Below, piece by piece: positions 19,237 to 27,806 of a DNA stretch of 32,000 bases; positions within the stretch are counted from its first letter, which is position 1, and each line of letters opens with the position of its first letter. The stretch is from assembly GCA_005191425.1 (NCBI GenBank), contig SUPR01000008.1, positions 25,590 through 57,589 of the forward strand, in the 5' to 3' direction. A model generated the notes under the pieces. The model was not told where the DNA came from. It did no database searches and worked only from the letters and a program-made list of their open reading frames with translations. Source of the stretch: Candidatus Helarchaeota ASGARD archaeon Hel_GB_B (GTDB lineage: Archaea > Asgardarchaeota > Lokiarchaeia > Helarchaeales > HEL-GB-B). A program made the translations under genes and the position numbers.

Positions 19237-19914
19237 TTAATTAAGTAATCTATGTTTATTATAACTCCAGATTAAGTCATCAAATTCTAGTGGATACAAT
19301 TTATTGTTGTAATAATCTTCGATTAACTCTATGATTTTCTTTTGACATAGTTCATATTTTTCTTTATCTATATTTGTTAAACTAGTCAAATTCATTTTTA
19401 GGGTTTGTAGCATGAATCTATCAATCGGCGAATTAAACCATTTTATTACTTTTTTGGCATATTCTTGGTCTGGTATATTGCTATAATAAAATACAAATTT
19501 TGTTGCAACGTCAATAATTTTAGCGGCTTGCCCCCAACTTATTCTACTTGTCGTTTGAGTTTTGACAGGTTTGATATTTTTAATTGCCCATTTACAAAAT
19601 TCATCGTGTAGTTCTACGTAGTCTTCTCTTCTTTCCATTTCGAACATTTTATTTATAGTATTGAATAATTTTGGTAATATCAATTCTTTTGATCTAGTTG
19701 AGAAATTTCGGAGCATAGTACTTATATTTAGTGATATATTTATTATGTTCTTAACTTTAGCTTCCATTACTTCTCTATAAAAATCTTTTTCTATTACTTC
19801 ATCATCTGAATACATCCTAATCCCCGTATCTCTATTACATTTTGGACATTTATTGTCTTCGGCAGACTTACCTTCCCATGTATAATTACACTCAAAGCAT
19901 ATAAATTTAACCAT
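19237..19914 (-). CDS. Hypothetical protein with N-terminal zinc ribbon (CFEC-x16-CPKC)
   Basis: 225-aa ORF with ATG start and AAGGT upstream. The C-terminal region (WGQAAKIIDVATKF, NSPID, LEFDDLIW) is not assigned with certainty. Confidence 0.75.
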   Translation of the reverse strand: MVKFICFECNYTWEGKSAEDNKCPKCNRDTGIRMYSDDEVIEKDFYREVMEAKVKNIINISLNISTMLRNFSTRSKELILPKLFNTINKMFEMERREDYVELHDEFCKWAIKNIKPVKTQTTSRISWGQAAKIIDVATKFVFYYSNIPDQEYAKKVIKWFNSPIDRFMLQTLKMNLTSLTNIDKEKYELCQKKIIELIEDYYNNKLYPLEFDDLIWSYNKHRLLN

Positions 19915-20492: not shown

Positions 20493-21155
20493 TTATTCAC
20501 GTAAATATACAATTCTTAAGAAATCTGCTGTATCTTCAGCAGAGTCGGCTATCGATTCTATGAATTCTATTAAAATATGTATTGTTATTGCAATAAATGG
20601 ATTACTTGGTGGTTCGATTGACAGCAATTTTTTATGTAATTTTAAATGGTCAATATCGACTATATGTTCTTGTTTATTGATTTTATGTATTTCTTCGATT
20701 AGTTCATCTTTTTTTAGTTTTGCAGGGTTAAGAAGCATATTTTTTAGGAGAAAAGCGCATTCTTTTGCATCACTTAGCATTTCTATTAGGTCTTTACATA
20801 TTGGTTTAATCATTTCTGGCTTTAATATAGATAATCTCCTACCTGCTCCATTTGCAGAGTTTGCCAACCGGTCTAAATTCTTAACTAAATGAGCCAAATT
20901 TTCCCTAATATTAGATGGCAATAAACTTTTGGAGAGTTTATACATTAAATCTCTACGAATATTATCAGCTTCATTCTCAATCTTATTAATCTTCTTAATA
21001 ATTTCTTTTGAAACTGCAATATCGCCTTTACAAAACTTTTTTAATGCAGATTCAAGTTCTACTACTGCATCATATACTTTCATTGCATGCGATCTGGTTA
21101 ATCTTAAGATTTCGTTTTCTTTTTTGGCACCAAAAAAGTCAATTAATTTGCTCAT
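20493..21155 (-). CDS. DUF47 / TIGR00153 PhoU-like phosphate transport regulator
   Basis: 220 aa helical protein with duplicated E-x-x-A/V-D motifs (IENEADNIRR, QEHIVD) and IADSAEDTADFL. Confidence 0.88.
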   Translation of the reverse strand: MSKLIDFFGAKKENEILRLTRSHAMKVYDAVVELESALKKFCKGDIAVSKEIIKKINKIENEADNIRRDLMYKLSKSLLPSNIRENLAHLVKNLDRLANSANGAGRRLSILKPEMIKPICKDLIEMLSDAKECAFLLKNMLLNPAKLKKDELIEEIHKINKQEHIVDIDHLKLHKKLLSIEPPSNPFIAITIHILIEFIESIADSAEDTADFLRIVYLRE

Positions 21156-21257: not shown

Positions 21258-22364
21258 TTAAAAAACATCGATTGCTTTTTCCAATCCCTCTTTTGGATAA
21301 GGAAATAGTAATGTACGGTCTGGTGAAAAATAAATTGCAACTTCTTCTCCTTCTTTAAACCAAGCTTTTGTTGCATGCCTTTTTAAAGTAAAAAGTTCTC
21401 CTGAAGTTAATCGCACTTCTTCAATACTATTTCCAGATACAAATTTAGACGTTTCTACGGTACCAAATAACACATTTTGCGTTTCTATTTTTTTGTTTCT
21501 TGAAATTTTTATATTTTCTGCTCTTATTGCAATAACTACTTTAGAACCAATTGGAAAATTTTTGTTAGAAACAAGAATTTTTTTCCCGTTTGAGAGCAAA
21601 ATGTAAGAGCCCTTTTCAACAATATCAATGATATTACCTTCTAAAAAATTACTAGTACTTATGAATCTACAAACAAATAAATTTTTAGGAGTTTCATAAA
21701 TTTCGCGTGGTGTACCAACTTGAATTATTTGTCCTTTGTGAATAATTGCTATTCTATCTGATACCATTAAAGCCTCTTCAGTATTCTGGGTAACATGAAT
21801 ACAAGTTAAGCCAAGTTTTTTTACTAGGTTCATAAGTTCATATCGTAAAGCCAGTCTAATCTTAGCGTCAAGAGCTGAAAGAGGTTCATCCAAGAGAATT
21901 AAATTTGTCGATGAACTTGCCATCATTGCTCTGGCTAAAGCAACCCGTTGTTTCATTCCCCCACTTAATTCATGTGGATATGCTTTTGGCCGGTTCTGTA
22001 ATAGGACTAACTCAAGCATATAATTTATCAACTGTCTTGATTCTTTTAATGTCTTTCCTTCAAGAACTCTTGGGCTATATCCGACATTTTTTTCTACTGT
22101 AAGGTGTGGGAAGAGTGCATAATTTGAGTGCTCAAAGACCATACCAATACCACGTTCTTCAGGTTCTTTGTCCGTCATATCCTCTCCGTCAAAATAAACT
22201 CTACCACTATCTGGCTTTAATAAACCGGCTATTATTTTTAATGTTGAGGTCTTCCCTGCTCCAGTAGGGCCACAAATAGTTAAATATTCTTTTGAATTGA
22301 TTTGTAAATTAATATTATAAAGAGAGTCCTTAATATTAATATTTTCTAATCTAATTTCGGTCAT
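21258..22364 (-). CDS. ABC transporter ATP-binding subunit 1 (PotA/CysA-like with TOBE-type C-terminus)
   Basis: GPTGAGKT, LSGGMKQR and LLDEP. The Q-loop reads VFEH and the H-switch reads VTQN. Likely start is ATG 22364, 7 nt after GAGGT; the track starts at TTG 22370. Confidence 0.95.
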   Translation of the reverse strand: MTEIRLENINIKDSLYNINLQINSKEYLTICGPTGAGKTSTLKIIAGLLKPDSGRVYFDGEDMTDKEPEERGIGMVFEHSNYALFPHLTVEKNVGYSPRVLEGKTLKESRQLINYMLELVLLQNRPKAYPHELSGGMKQRVALARAMMASSSTNLILLDEPLSALDAKIRLALRYELMNLVKKLGLTCIHVTQNTEEALMVSDRIAIIHKGQIIQVGTPREIYETPKNLFVCRFISTSNFLEGNIIDIVEKGSYILLSNGKKILVSNKNFPIGSKVVIAIRAENIKISRNKKIETQNVLFGTVETSKFVSGNSIEEVRLTSGELFTLKRHATKAWFKEGEEVAIYFSPDRTLLFPYPKEGLEKAIDVF

Positions 22365-22379
22365 TACCAATACCTCGAG

Positions 22380-23495
22380 CTATTCAAGTGCAAGTTCATA
22401 ATCCAAATCCTCTGGATATGGAAATAATAATACATTTTCAGGGTGTAATTTTATATAAACTTTAGACCCAACTTCAAATTGAATACTGGGTGGATAAGTG
22501 ACCTTGGCTTCAATGATATCACCATTTTCTAATTCTATATTAACTCGTAGGTGAGAACCTAAAAATGCAATATTATTGATATTACCTTCGATTAAATTAT
22601 TATCTTTTAATTTGTTTTCTTCAATAAATTCTTTAATCTTAACGAATTCTTTTCTTATTGAACCAATAACTCTATCTCTTTTATAAAAATGTTTATTTTT
22701 TGAAAAAATTATTGGTCCACCACCATGTAATTTAATTTGAGTATATTTATCAATAGATTTGACTTCTCCTTCTACGAAATTAGATTCACCAATAAAGTTT
22801 GCTACAAAAATAGCGTTAGGTTTAATATATAAGTCTCCTGGAGTCCCAACTTGTAAAATACTACCTTTCCGCATAACAGCGATTCTATCACTAATCATCA
22901 TTGCTTCATCTTGATCATGAGTGACATGTATTGCTGTTATATTTAATTTTTTGACCAACTTTCTCATTTCTACTCTAAATTCATCTCTATACCGTTGGTC
23001 TAATGCGCCTAATGGCTCATCTAATAGCAAAATCTTCGCACCCGTTGCAAGAGCCCGAGCTATTCCAATTCTTTGAAGTTGCGGCGCAGTTAATTCGAAG
23101 GGAAATTTGTCAACATATTTGTCCAAATTGACCAAATGGATATATTTTGAAACCCGTTCCTCAATTTCATCTTTATTGACTCCACGAACTTTACAAGAAT
23201 AACTAACGTTATCCCATACATCTAAAAATGGAAATATCTCGAAATGCTGAAATACCATTCCAATATTTCTTTCCTCTGGAGGTACATTAAAATCTATTTT
23301 TTTATCTCCAAAATAAATTTCTCCCGAATCAGCTTTTTCTAGCCCTGCAATAATTCTCAATGTAGTAGTTTTACCACATCCACTAGGCCCTAATAAAGTT
23401 AAGTATTCACCATCATAAACTTTTAAACTAACACCTCTAACAGCTTGAACGCTTCCAAAGCTTTTTTTAATATTATCCAAGATAATATCGACCAA
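22380..23495 (-). CDS. ABC transporter ATP-binding subunit 2
   Basis: GPSGCGKT, VFQH, LLLDEP and VTHDQ. The signature motif reads LTAPQ. TTG start. Confidence 0.95.
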   Translation of the reverse strand: MVDIILDNIKKSFGSVQAVRGVSLKVYDGEYLTLLGPSGCGKTTTLRIIAGLEKADSGEIYFGDKKIDFNVPPEERNIGMVFQHFEIFPFLDVWDNVSYSCKVRGVNKDEIEERVSKYIHLVNLDKYVDKFPFELTAPQLQRIGIARALATGAKILLLDEPLGALDQRYRDEFRVEMRKLVKKLNITAIHVTHDQDEAMMISDRIAVMRKGSILQVGTPGDLYIKPNAIFVANFIGESNFVEGEVKSIDKYTQIKLHGGGPIIFSKNKHFYKRDRVIGSIRKEFVKIKEFIEENKLKDNNLIEGNINNIAFLGSHLRVNIELENGDIIEAKVTYPPSIQFEVGSKVYIKLHPENVLLFPYPEDLDYELALE

Positions 23496-23516: not shown

Positions 23517-25214
23517 TTATGTTTTAATTTTTAATATTTTTTCTCTTGTTGTTATATGTCTTAATATTAAAATTAAGACAAATGACAGGACAATTAAAAT
23601 AAAACTTGCAAATGCAGCTGAAGGTAGGTCAATAGACTCCACCCAGTCAACAATTGTAACTGGTATGGTTCGTACTAAACCCATGACTACAAATGTAGCC
23701 CCCGTTTCTCCAAGACTCCTAGTAAAGACCATAATAGAACCAGCAAGTAATGCATTTCTTAGAAGTGGGATAGTAACTTTTCTAAATGTAGTAAAACTAT
23801 ATGCACCAAGAGTTCTAGATGCCTCTTCATAACCCGAGACAATTCCTTCTAGACTTGCAATAAGCACCCTCGTCATATAAGGAAATGTAAATACGATATG
23901 GACTATTATTATTAACAAATATCCTGGCGTTAATAGTCCTCCTATAGACCTAAATGGACCTATTGTACCCCAAAATAAAAAAATTGAGAATCCAAGGGCT
24001 GATGACGGAATTGCAAGAGGTAAATCAATCAAAGTATCCAAGATTGCATTAAATTTACCCCACTTCCGACGCACTACAATTATTGCCATAGCCAGCCCTA
24101 AAACAATATTAATTAATGTTGCAACTGCAGCAATTGATAATGAATTCATCAAACTTATCCAAAGAGATGCCCATTTATTGTCCGATTGAAAAAAAACTTG
24201 GTTTATAGCGCCATTTGGGCCACTTAAATTTAAAAATAAATAATCTATACTATATAACGCAGGAATTAATATTAGAAATCCAAAAAAGAAGATAGTAAAT
24301 CCATCTCTTAACCACCTAAATACCTTTTTTGATAAGAATTTTTCAGTTCGGACAAAAACCCTATATACCGGCAGTCCAATTTTCCTGGTAATTGTTTTAA
24401 TAAGAATTAATAAAATAATAGCTATAATGACCAAAATCATAGCCAAAAAAGCAGCAGGTCCAAATAATGCTTGGGATTTTAACGTAACAATTTGTATTGG
24501 TGCAGTTTCTGCCACTCCATATACTATAAGTGTTGCACCAGTTTCTCCCAAACTTCTTGTAAATGCCAAAATTGCACCTGCTATTAGTCCTTCTTTAATC
24601 AATGGAGCTGTAATCGTCCTAAATACCGTAAACTTCCGAGCACCAAGGCTCTGGGCAGCTTTTTCAAGAGTTTCATCTTGGTTCATTAATATTACTTTTA
24701 TATTTCGAGTAATGTAAGGATATGTGAAAACTACATGGGTTAAAATTATCATAATAACTCCGGGCGAAATTAACCCTCTATCAAGCCCAAAGATCCATGC
24801 AATACCCGAACTTGAACCCCAAAATAATAAAATTGAAAATCCTAATGCAGCAGTGGGGACAGCCATTGGTAAATCTACAAGTGTGTCAAGGATCCTTTTT
24901 CCTTTAAAATCATATTTTACAAGAATAATCGCCATAGGAAGTCCAATTAATATATCTATAATAACAGTAATCGCCGATATCATTAACGAACGTAACAAGG
25001 CAGTACCCATATCTACAAATCGAGTTGACCCGGATACTGGATTATTAAAAATCCAAAACGAAACATCATTCCATTCTTGAATTACATAAGTGAAAATATA
25101 TAAAATAGGTATAATTATAATAACGAAAAAGATTAATAAACTAGTAAAATCGCCTATTATTCGAGCTTTTTTACTAGATAATGATTTGTCTATTTTTCTT
25201 ATTAGATCTACCAT
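23517..25214 (-). CDS. Fused two-domain ABC permease (CysT/CysW/ModB/FbpB-like)
   Basis: Two homologous halves (DLPMAVPTAALGF and DLPLAIPSSALGF), two EAA loops (EKAAQSLGA and EEASRTLGA), and RSLGETGAT twice. Likely start is ATG 25214; the track starts at TTG 25226. Confidence 0.93.
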   Translation of the reverse strand: MVDLIRKIDKSLSSKKARIIGDFTSLLIFFVIIIIPILYIFTYVIQEWNDVSFWIFNNPVSGSTRFVDMGTALLRSLMISAITVIIDILIGLPMAIILVKYDFKGKRILDTLVDLPMAVPTAALGFSILLFWGSSSGIAWIFGLDRGLISPGVIMIILTHVVFTYPYITRNIKVILMNQDETLEKAAQSLGARKFTVFRTITAPLIKEGLIAGAILAFTRSLGETGATLIVYGVAETAPIQIVTLKSQALFGPAAFLAMILVIIAIILLILIKTITRKIGLPVYRVFVRTEKFLSKKVFRWLRDGFTIFFFGFLILIPALYSIDYLFLNLSGPNGAINQVFFQSDNKWASLWISLMNSLSIAAVATLINIVLGLAMAIIVVRRKWGKFNAILDTLIDLPLAIPSSALGFSIFLFWGTIGPFRSIGGLLTPGYLLIIIVHIVFTFPYMTRVLIASLEGIVSGYEEASRTLGAYSFTTFRKVTIPLLRNALLAGSIMVFTRSLGETGATFVVMGLVRTIPVTIVDWVESIDLPSAAFASFILIVLSFVLILILRHITTREKILKIKT

Positions 25215-25227
25215 AATTCTCCACAAA

Positions 25228-26367
25228 TTATTTCGCTTTTGTTACTAACCACAAATCCGGAAGATATTTAAAAACATCACTTTGAATTGCTGGATTGTAT
25301 AATGGAATTGTTAAGTCGCGTTTAAGTCCATTACCATAGTTAAAAATTGAATTAAACGTAGAATTATAAGTTGCATTTAATAGAATTTTTGGGTTATAGG
25401 GCCTAAATCCATATTGGAACGCCTCTTTTATAGTAGAATTTAATTGTAAAAATTCTAAAAATTGTTTTGCTGCCTCATATTGTTTTTTCGAAACCCAACT
25501 TCCTTTTAAAATGGTAAATGGGTGGTCCGCTAATAATGTCCCATCTCGTGGATAGATTGCTATCGCTTTTCTGCCTGATACTCCATTGTTTATATTTATT
25601 ACCAAATTCTCATAAATCATAAAGACATCTAATGTTTGATCCATAGCTCGGTGCGCCAGAAAACCAGTACTTTTCCCATAAAATTCACATTCTCCCTCTA
25701 TATCATGCATCCAAACCCTCAAGCTGTTATTCAAGAGGTCATTTAATATAATTTCTGAAGTATTTTTCTTAAAAAAAGAAGCTACTTCCATTACAACAGC
25801 CATATATCCTGAATTTGATAATTGTGGGTCTGTATGGGATAACCTTAAATTAAATGATTGAACAGCCACATTTCTTAAATCATTAAAACTGGTTATTCCG
25901 TATGTATTATTAAAATCTTCCCATGTACCAATTACAAAAGGTGAATATATAATCCTAATATTTTCTTCACTATTAGAAATATTAATTAAATTCGTTTTAA
26001 ATATTCTATTCCATTCATTATTAAGATAATAAATCCAAATACTTGATGCGGGACTCAAAATCACAGGTCGGATCTCTCCCGTTATTGTCGAAATGCACAT
26101 ACTTCTTGAGCCCATTGGTCTAAAATTTACCGCAATCGTTTCACCACCATTTTTAGCAGAATACCAGTTGACAAATTCTGACACAATCGATTCAATCCAA
26201 GCCCGCTTCTCAGAACTATAAATCATTGTAAGTGTTACATCTGCAGTTTCAGAACTCCCCAGCATAATCCCAACTGGAATTCCAATCCCAAGACCAACTA
26301 AAAAAATTATTATAAACGCACCAAATTTTCTTTTATATCTATGCTTTATCCGTATATTTGAACTCAT
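25228..26367 (-). CDS. Membrane-anchored solute-binding protein (SBP_bac_11-like, of the type normally fused to a vWA domain)
   Basis: Basic N-terminus plus one TM helix, then YSSEK, SPASSIW, SPFVI, HTDP..SNSG, STGFL, YENLV and YPRDGTLLADHPF. Seven N-x-S/T sequons. Likely start is ATG 26367; the track extension to 26451 overlaps a separate small ORF. Confidence 0.8.
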   Translation of the reverse strand: MSSNIRIKHRYKRKFGAFIIIFLVGLGIGIPVGIMLGSSETADVTLTMIYSSEKRAWIESIVSEFVNWYSAKNGGETIAVNFRPMGSRSMCISTITGEIRPVILSPASSIWIYYLNNEWNRIFKTNLINISNSEENIRIIYSPFVIGTWEDFNNTYGITSFNDLRNVAVQSFNLRLSHTDPQLSNSGYMAVVMEVASFFKKNTSEIILNDLLNNSLRVWMHDIEGECEFYGKSTGFLAHRAMDQTLDVFMIYENLVININNGVSGRKAIAIYPRDGTLLADHPFTILKGSWVSKKQYEAAKQFLEFLQLNSTIKEAFQYGFRPYNPKILLNATYNSTFNSIFNYGNGLKRDLTIPLYNPAIQSDVFKYLPDLWLVTKAK

Positions 26368-26375
26368 TCTGAAAA

Positions 26376-26495
26376 TTACCCAATTAGTGAATATGCATAT
26401 CCCGTTATATAACCAATTAATATTCCAACTCCAAGTCCAATTAAAAGACATATTGCTAAAATTGTTAACTTAACGGTCAATCTCTTAATTTTCAT
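26376..26495 (-). CDS. Small single-pass membrane protein, 39 aa (MKIKRLTVKLTILAICLLIGLGVGILIGYITGYAYSLIG)
   Basis: Hand-translated ATG-to-TAA ORF, below the track length cutoff. Basic N-terminus followed by a Gly-rich TM helix. Its stop lies 8 bp before the solute-binding protein start. Confidence 0.6.
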   Translation of the reverse strand: MKIKRLTVKLTILAICLLIGLGVGILIGYITGYAYSLIG

Positions 26496-26813: not shown

Positions 26814-27806
26814 ATGGAAACAAGAAAAGTTCAAATTACTGGTGGGTCATCTTATATTATCAGTTTACCAAAAGAGTGGATTAATAAAAATAAAATACAT
26901 CCTAAAGATGCATTAAATTTAATAATACAAGAAGATAAAATTCTACTAATACCACCTAAAAAATTTAAAAAACTTAATTTTAGAGAAAAAGTAATCAATT
27001 TAGAGGATATAGAAGGTGCATCATATCTATTTCGGTTATTAATTGGTGTGTATATGATGGGATATTCTATGATAATTTTACAAGCAAAAAAGAGGATAAC
27101 AATCGAATACCGCGAGGTTATAAAAAAATTTGTAAATGACGCTATTGGACTGGAGATTATGGACGAGAGTCCCTATCAAATTAAAATCAAAGACCTATTA
27201 AATCCTGCAGAGATGCCTTTTGATACAATTACAAATCGTTTATATTTATTAGTAAAAAACATGCTTGATGATTCTCGAATTGCTTTAAATAACAAGGACA
27301 AAGACCTGTCTGAAAATATTGTAAAAAGGGATGATGATATTGACCGTTTGTATTGGTTAATTGCCCGTCAAAGTAATTTAATTCTTAAAAATTTAATAAT
27401 TTCTATTGAAGTAGGCATTGAAACAAAAAATGCAAATTTTTATTATTTTATTTCTAGAATTATTGAACGAATTGGTGATCATGCAGTTAATATTGCAAAA
27501 CATATCCCAATTATTATGGAACGCTTAAAAGAACCACAAATAAATAAAATAAATACAGCAATCCAAGCAGCTTCAGATATTTTTTCAAAAAGTATAAAAA
27601 TCTGGCAGGAAGAAAATATGACTGAAGCTAATCAGATCATCGATTCTGCTGGAAATTTGAATTCTATTTTAAATGAGATTAATAATTTCGCTATTAATAC
27701 AGAAAATGAGGTAGCAATTGCTCTTAACTATATAATAGAAAGTATTAGAAGAATCGCAGATTATTCAACTAATATATGCGAATTAACAATCAATTTTCTT
27801 GTTTAA
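26814..27806 (+). CDS. phoU: Archaeal phosphate uptake regulator PhoU with N-terminal AbrB/SpoVT DNA-binding domain
   Basis: METRKVQITGGSSYIISLPKEW (AbrB-type), then PhoU repeats DDDIDRLY, IERIGDHAVNI and IRRIADYSTNICE. Confidence 0.93.
   Translation: METRKVQITGGSSYIISLPKEWINKNKIHPKDALNLIIQEDKILLIPPKKFKKLNFREKVINLEDIEGASYLFRLLIGVYMMGYSMIILQAKKRITIEYREVIKKFVNDAIGLEIMDESPYQIKIKDLLNPAEMPFDTITNRLYLLVKNMLDDSRIALNNKDKDLSENIVKRDDDIDRLYWLIARQSNLILKNLIISIEVGIETKNANFYYFISRIIERIGDHAVNIAKHIPIIMERLKEPQINKINTAIQAASDIFSKSIKIWQEENMTEANQIIDSAGNLNSILNEINNFAINTENEVAIALNYIIESIRRIADYSTNICELTINFLV

Follow-up and report, generated by a model that had tools for sequence, protein, structure and literature searches.

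Complementary motif losses in the paired ATPases of an Asgard archaeal type I ABC importer suggest a heterodimeric motor with one consensus and one degenerate ATP site

We analyzed a 32,000-nucleotide stretch of DNA from an uncultured Asgard archaeon (the window, whose positions serve as coordinates throughout) that carries a six-gene locus for an ATP-binding cassette (ABC) importer. Five minus-strand genes make up an apparent operon, running from a binding protein through a fused double permease and two ATPases with nucleotide-binding domains (NBDs), here termed NBDup and NBDdn, to a DUF47 protein, and a single divergent gene encodes a regulator. The two ATPases are our main subject. Their motifs depart from consensus in a complementary fashion, and we consider it likely that they form an obligate heterodimer in which one consensus site hydrolyzes ATP and the other site is degenerate, driving a type I importer at the expense of one ATP per cycle and descending from one old gene duplication. 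The genes of the locus are as follows.

25228-26451, minus strand: substrate-binding protein, membrane-anchored (Pfam SBP_bac_11, E 1.1e-10)
23517-25226, minus strand: fused double permease of 569 residues with two type I importer membrane domains (Pfam BPD_transp_1, two stretches)
22380-23495, minus strand: NBDup, ATPase with a C-terminal TOBE domain (Pfam ABC_tran and TOBE_2)
21258-22370, minus strand: NBDdn, ATPase with a C-terminal TOBE domain (Pfam ABC_tran and TOBE_2)
20493-21155, minus strand: DUF47 (PhoU_div) protein, the last gene of the operon (Pfam PF01865, E 1.7e-26)
26814-27806, plus strand: divergent regulator with an AbrB/MazE-type DNA-binding domain and two PhoU domains (Pfam PhoU, E 1.6e-23; MazE_antitoxin, E 1.6e-11)

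The features of a type I ABC importer are all present, namely two PF00528 (BPD_transp_1) stretches, an SBP_bac_11 binding protein, ABC_tran domains, and coupling (EAA-type) loops. The core of the coupling loop, FTRSLGETGAT, is identical in both halves of the permease, so the loop core cannot tell which ATPase docks where. NBDdn starts 9 bases past the stop codon of NBDup, and the two are non-identical ATPase domains that share 39% identity. The G+C content is ~30%, and the nearest database proteins carry the labels Helarchaeota, Lokiarchaeota, and other Asgard archaea.

Motif positions in the two ATPases were recomputed from the sequence, and the key residues of NBDdn were placed by HMMER alignment to the solved Escherichia coli PotA (8zx1), whose Q-loop Gln aligns with Glu80 and whose H-switch His aligns with Gln195. 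The motif states that matter for the argument are listed here.

22245-22271, minus strand: NBDdn Walker A, GPTGAGKTS
22131-22133, minus strand: NBDdn Q-loop codon in VFEH, Gln replaced by Glu80
21954-21968, minus strand: NBDdn signature, LSGGM, intact
21882-21899, minus strand: NBDdn Walker B, ILLDEP
21786-21788, minus strand: NBDdn H-switch codon in VTQN, His replaced by Gln195
23079-23093, minus strand: NBDup signature, LTAPQ, degenerate, in place of LSGGQ/M

The other elements of NBDup are consensus (Walker A GPSGCGKTT, Q-loop VFQH, Walker B LLLDEP, H-switch VTHD). Each ABC site is established to consist of the Walker, Q-loop, and H-switch elements of one subunit and the signature of its partner (PMC7756269), and by this geometry every change falls in the site where the Walker side of NBDdn meets the NBDup signature. 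The reciprocal site, which joins the Walker side of NBDup to the LSGGM of NBDdn, is fully consensus. The original prediction for this DNA had reported these substitutions and their positions and had placed all of them in one composite site; the positions are exact on recomputation, and the placement holds for the window pair.

NBDdn carries one further change in this site. At its N terminus (22290-22330, minus strand) a 4-residue deletion removes the A-loop aromatic, the residue that stacks on adenine. The deletion is seen in the window's genus only (the window and locus L021), and the aromatic is kept in all homologs of NBDup (up subunits) and in most other homologs of NBDdn (dn subunits). 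Its absence from NBDdn may mean weak binding of ATP or adenine instead of stable occlusion. The remaining ABC domains of the organism's genome all retain at least one of the two signature glycines, and the H-switch His is kept in all but one of those aligned over that position.

The tandem pair is widely distributed among relatives. It was found, with the same pattern, in 17 of 40 related genomes searched, in addition to the window's own genome, and after a search of 200 genomes of the phylum a further 20 loci were retrieved, with the pair reaching many Asgard families. A pattern search of genome contigs with the dn signature and the Walker B/D-loop gave, among the matches listed, generic bacterial ATPases and one useful locus (L042, Thermoplasmata). 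Where wider flanks were available, the order of binding protein, fused permease, up, and dn is kept in 17/17 loci, and 16/17 have a DUF47 gene within the operon or next to it.

We compared motif states across 30 up/dn pairs, of which 27 come from Asgard genome loci, one from a Bathyarchaeota record, and two from unlabelled metagenome contigs. Every pair has two to four deviations in the site that combines the dn Walker side with the up signature and none in the other site, which bears out the proposed co-conservation of the substitutions in orthologs. On the consensus side, the up subunits retain the Walker A Lys, the Q-loop Gln, the Walker B Asp-Glu, and the H-switch His without exception (30/30), as the dn subunits retain the Ser-Gly-Gly of their signature (30/30). 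On the degenerate side, the up signature lacks the Gly-Gly pair in all 30, with AP in its place in 15, NP in 6, and DP, NG, TP, VP, EP, or AA in the rest (for example LSAPE, FGNPG, LTAPQ, WGNGD, LNTPE, and LSAAN). The dn Q-loop never carries Gln (Glu in 28, Ala in 2). At the dn H-switch, 14 pairs have Asn, 9 keep His, and the 7 with Gln all belong to the window's order. Among the nine dn subunits that keep His, six have the Walker B Glu replaced by Asp, and a seventh has Gln at this position and has also lost the Walker A Lys. An H-switch Asn and a Walker B Glu-to-Gln change occur together in another pair. The totals for the degenerate site across the 30 pairs are therefore an H-switch changed to Gln or Asn in 21, a Walker B Glu-to-Asp change in 6, a Glu-to-Gln change in 2, and a lost Walker A Lys in 1.

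The motif pattern exceeds chance, judged both by its presence in 30/30 pairs and against the other ABC domains of the organism's own genome. Different catalytic residues are hit in different lineages but always in the same site, the pattern expected if catalysis there is dispensable and the other site is strictly constrained. The degenerate-site residues are themselves conserved, with the Glu of position 80 in 28/30 pairs and the Gln of position 195 throughout the order, which points to selection for this state over random decay.

In a likelihood tree built from 81 ATPases, all 30 up-type sequences fall in one clade (support 98) and all dn-type sequences in another with weaker support (80). 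A third clade (support 96) is made up of the second subunits from a milder variant with two ATPases, and the single-ATPase forms are unresolved at the base. The same genome groupings recur inside the up and dn clades, and the topology accords with a single ancient duplication of one symmetric ATPase and parallel descent of the two copies. An LSGGM signature and consensus at every motif characterize the single-ATPase relatives, most of which are labelled Bathyarchaeota. Three of their operons were examined: each has the fused permease with one ATPase, two have DUF47 as the next gene, and all three lack both a second ATPase and a neighboring gene for a binding protein. NBDup is 49% and NBDdn 42% identical to a single-ATPase form. 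In the milder two-ATPase variant (loci L041, L139, L141, L042, L131, L132, L124, and L125, several of them without an adjacent binding-protein gene) the dn-like gene comes first, both ATPases keep all catalytic residues, and the signature of the second ATPase is only slightly altered (LSGGA, LSSGA, LSRGA, or LSSGE).

One relative (genome G005) was found to encode two full paralogous copies of the operon (L022 and L024, on contigs C3 and C6). Each copy is complementary-degenerate, with the signatures LSDPE and LSVPD.

We hypothesize that NBDup and NBDdn are the two halves of a heterodimeric motor seated on the fused double permease. The consensus site, composed of the Walker A, Q-loop, Walker B, and H-switch of NBDup and the LSGGM of NBDdn, would hydrolyze ATP, and the degenerate site, with the Q-loop Glu, the H-switch Gln, and the missing A-loop aromatic of NBDdn and the LTAPQ of NBDup, would have little or no hydrolytic activity. 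To judge from exporters (PMC3971661, PMC7756565, PMC7756269), the degenerate site would most likely hold nucleotide or just keep the dimer interface together, such that one ATP would be split per cycle. Such a motor would have originated when a single symmetric ATPase duplicated once, long ago, and the two copies underwent complementary loss of function.

Comparison of homologous sequences lends good support to the core of this proposal, namely an obligate heterodimer that has one consensus and one degenerate site. An up homodimer would lack the signature and a dn homodimer would lack the Gln and His, so that only the heterodimer is predicted to yield a consensus site, and the obligate heterodimer of the original prediction accordingly keeps its standing as the sole such combination. 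That the dn signature and the up catalytic residues are so strictly conserved likewise argues for pairing of the two subunits. The further suggestion of one catalytic and one regulatory site is an inference, and NBDdn retains its Walker A Lys and Walker B Glu. Loss of catalysis at the degenerate site and the use of one ATP per cycle are likewise inferred.

Several points weigh against our reading, and some of them favor a motor in which both sites are still catalytic, the Gln-to-Glu, His-to-Gln, and LSGG-to-LTAP changes being tolerated and two ATP being split per cycle, as in MalK2. The NBDdn of the window keeps both the Walker A Lys and the catalytic Glu of Walker B (ILLDEP), and in exporters it is the replacement of this Glu that usually marks a degenerate site (PMC7544095). 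In MRP1, site 2 mutants with Gln or Asn in the H-loop retain transport like that of the wild type (PMC7756269). The Q-loop Glu also occurs in other, presumably active, ABC families of the same genome, and for that reason we give it no weight by itself. The degenerate site may still turn over ATP slowly. Assembly of the heterodimer is deduced from sequence logic and gene adjacency. The relatives, moreover, are kin and the split was probably one old event, so that 30/30 does not amount to 30 independent trials. Even so, we regard a motor with two catalytic sites as unlikely. Both signature glycines are missing from the up subunits of every pair, and the catalytic Glu, although present in the window, is replaced at this same site in sister lineages (8/30 pairs, with Asp-Asp or Asp-Gln in Walker B), as is the Walker A Lys in one pair. 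The A-loop aromatic has been deleted as well in the window's genus, and the opposite site shows no comparable drift.

A different possibility is that the two ATPases form alternative homodimeric motors, or that one of them is a spare or regulatory paralog that does not share the permease with the other. Both ATPases are full-length with a TOBE domain, and the single-ATPase versions of the importer get by on one gene. We nonetheless consider this very improbable, since homodimers of up would have two sites without a signature and homodimers of dn two sites without the Gln and His, neither of them consensus. The genes are also 9 bases apart in the window and always adjacent, their groupings match between the two clades, and separate homodimers would leave the complementary conservation unexplained.

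Returning to the heterodimer with one consensus and one degenerate site, its closest parallels lie among exporters, in which degenerate sites are frequent (PMC3971661). The heterodimeric exporters TM287/288, TmrAB, TAP1/2, MRP1, CFTR, and Pdr5 likewise combine one consensus site with one degenerate site (PMC7756269, PMC3971661), and the likeness drawn earlier to such systems is apt. In both, signature changes in one ATPase coincide in a single composite site with H-loop, Q-loop, or Walker changes in the other, the second site being strictly consensus, and related lineages of the present family show the classic Walker B Glu-to-Asp replacement. Unlike those exporters, the system described here has the membrane part of a type I importer (fused PF00528 domains and a binding protein) and separate, soluble TOBE ATPases, and the window's own NBDdn retains the catalytic Glu.

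Importers with one degenerate ATP site have already been described in a survey of Bacillus subtilis, namely RbsA and NupO (PMC11466899). Those systems, which the survey assigns to the type II importers, have fused ATPase domains and lack the Walker A Lys; the present importer has ATPases encoded by separate genes, a type I permease, and a retained Walker A. The best sequence models for the permease and the ATPases are those of CysPTWA, ModABC, WtpABC, and the PotA type (3d31, 2onk, 8zx1), whose ATPases have a TOBE-type C-terminal domain in common with those described here. In such systems a single kind of ATPase forms a homodimer, and both of its sites are consensus; the present system differs from them in its fused permease halves, its two ATPases, and its attached DUF47 gene. 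PstSCAB-PhoU follows the same operon logic (binding protein, permease, ATPase, and then a PhoU-fold protein), but the permease described here is closer to CysT/ModB and the last gene encodes DUF47, not PhoU proper. In a literature search that was not exhaustive, we found no description of a type I importer that has separate ATPases and a degenerate site between them, and none of a DUF47-linked ABC importer family. The asymmetry had been called unusual for a type I importer, and this is true of the literature searched but not of genomes, where the pair is widespread in Asgard archaea and occurs also in Bathyarchaeota.

The transported substrate may well be an oxyanion, possibly phosphate, and genes for PhoU-fold proteins flank the operon. 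The AlphaFold model of the binding protein (mean predicted local distance difference test score, pLDDT, 91.6) finds its best PDB folds among sulfate-binding proteins (5um2, 1sbp, and 6ddn), followed by sugar-phosphate (AfuA) and polyamine binders, at 11 to 16% identity. A phmmer search of the binding protein against PDB sequences gave no meaningful match, and no NCBIfam model matched it. The best NCBIfam models for the permease are those of sulfate CysT/W, molybdate ModB, and tungstate WtpB; the fused permease scores 221.8 against the ModB cut-off of 182.6, but only as the sum of its two halves, and falls below the cut-offs of the CysT/W and WtpB models. The best models for the ATPases (PhnT2, PotA, WtpC, and CysA) are all far below their cut-offs, for example WtpC at 248 to 263 against 440 and CysA at 200 to 240 against 502. 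The Pst models are also all below cut-off (PstB at 145 bits or less against 343, PstC at 84.7 against 196, and PstA at 71 against 193). No PstB above the family cut-off was found in the organism's 94%-complete genome, and the ABC system described here could therefore be its ATP-driven phosphate or oxyanion importer.

We note separately that in one relative (G038) a Pst-like cluster, consisting of a long permease-like open reading frame (ORF), a short PstB-like ATPase, and a PhoU-like gene (L035:341-4823), lies ~1.6 kb from the DUF47 end of the importer.

A DUF47 gene is present in nearly all of the related loci examined, including two of the three single-ATPase forms, and some relatives, but not all, have the AbrB-PhoU regulator close to the operon. 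In Pst systems, PhoU presumably acts on PstB. The original prediction had offered the degenerate site as a possible docking point for PhoU or DUF47, and the position of DUF47 at the end of the operon in nearly all related loci, with a PhoU-domain regulator adjoining some of them, is in keeping with a site that evolved for docking or sensing such a protein. This idea has not fared well, and we now think there is little chance that it is correct. DUF47 follows a fully consensus single ATPase in two of the three relatives examined, which makes its association independent of the degenerate site, and it also occurs with the mildly altered pairs. Outside the window, the organism has a second DUF47 gene, which adjoins a Pit/PHO4 phosphate permease (contig C115:28148-29731), a type of transporter that has no ATPase. 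With DUF47 found beside symmetric, milder, and Pit systems alike, the association appears older and broader than the degenerate site. Co-folding of NBDup and NBDdn with DUF47 as the scored partner gave a score of 0.00, to which we attach no weight in either direction.

Taken more broadly, these observations lead us to a tentative proposal that we regard as possible but rather doubtful in its full extent: the importer would represent an undescribed, widespread archaeal family of DUF47-regulated transporters for an oxyanion, possibly phosphate, with symmetric one-ATPase and asymmetric two-ATPase forms, the latter having a degenerate site selected for holding or sensing nucleotide and spending one ATP per cycle. 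Were this true, the family would provide a natural matched pair in which to test the evolutionary reasons for degenerate ATP sites and the costs or savings that come with them. Such sites have been studied almost only in exporters, and the family would bear on what they do in a binding-protein-dependent importer and on the number of ATP molecules that an ABC pump needs per cycle. The family offers three natural grades of one machine, with one ATPase and two normal sites, two ATPases and a mildly altered site, or two ATPases and a strongly altered site, so that both the stoichiometry and the role of the second site could be tested by comparing homologs instead of artificial mutants. It may also be the main high-affinity route of phosphate or oxyanion uptake in those Asgard archaea without a recognizable Pst system.

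Two minor features of the locus complete its description. Downstream of the operon, positions 19237-19914 (minus strand) encode a 225-residue protein with an N-terminal CxxC...CxxC zinc-ribbon, for which the only family match was a weak, rubredoxin-like Pfam hit below cut-off. At the other end, the orthologs of the binding protein (17/17) begin ~30 residues downstream of the listed ORF start. The real start is probably Met29 at 26367, judging from this alignment of starts, which would make 26368-26451 (minus strand) an extra portion of the listed ORF; Met29 sits directly ahead of a basic stretch and the membrane anchor.

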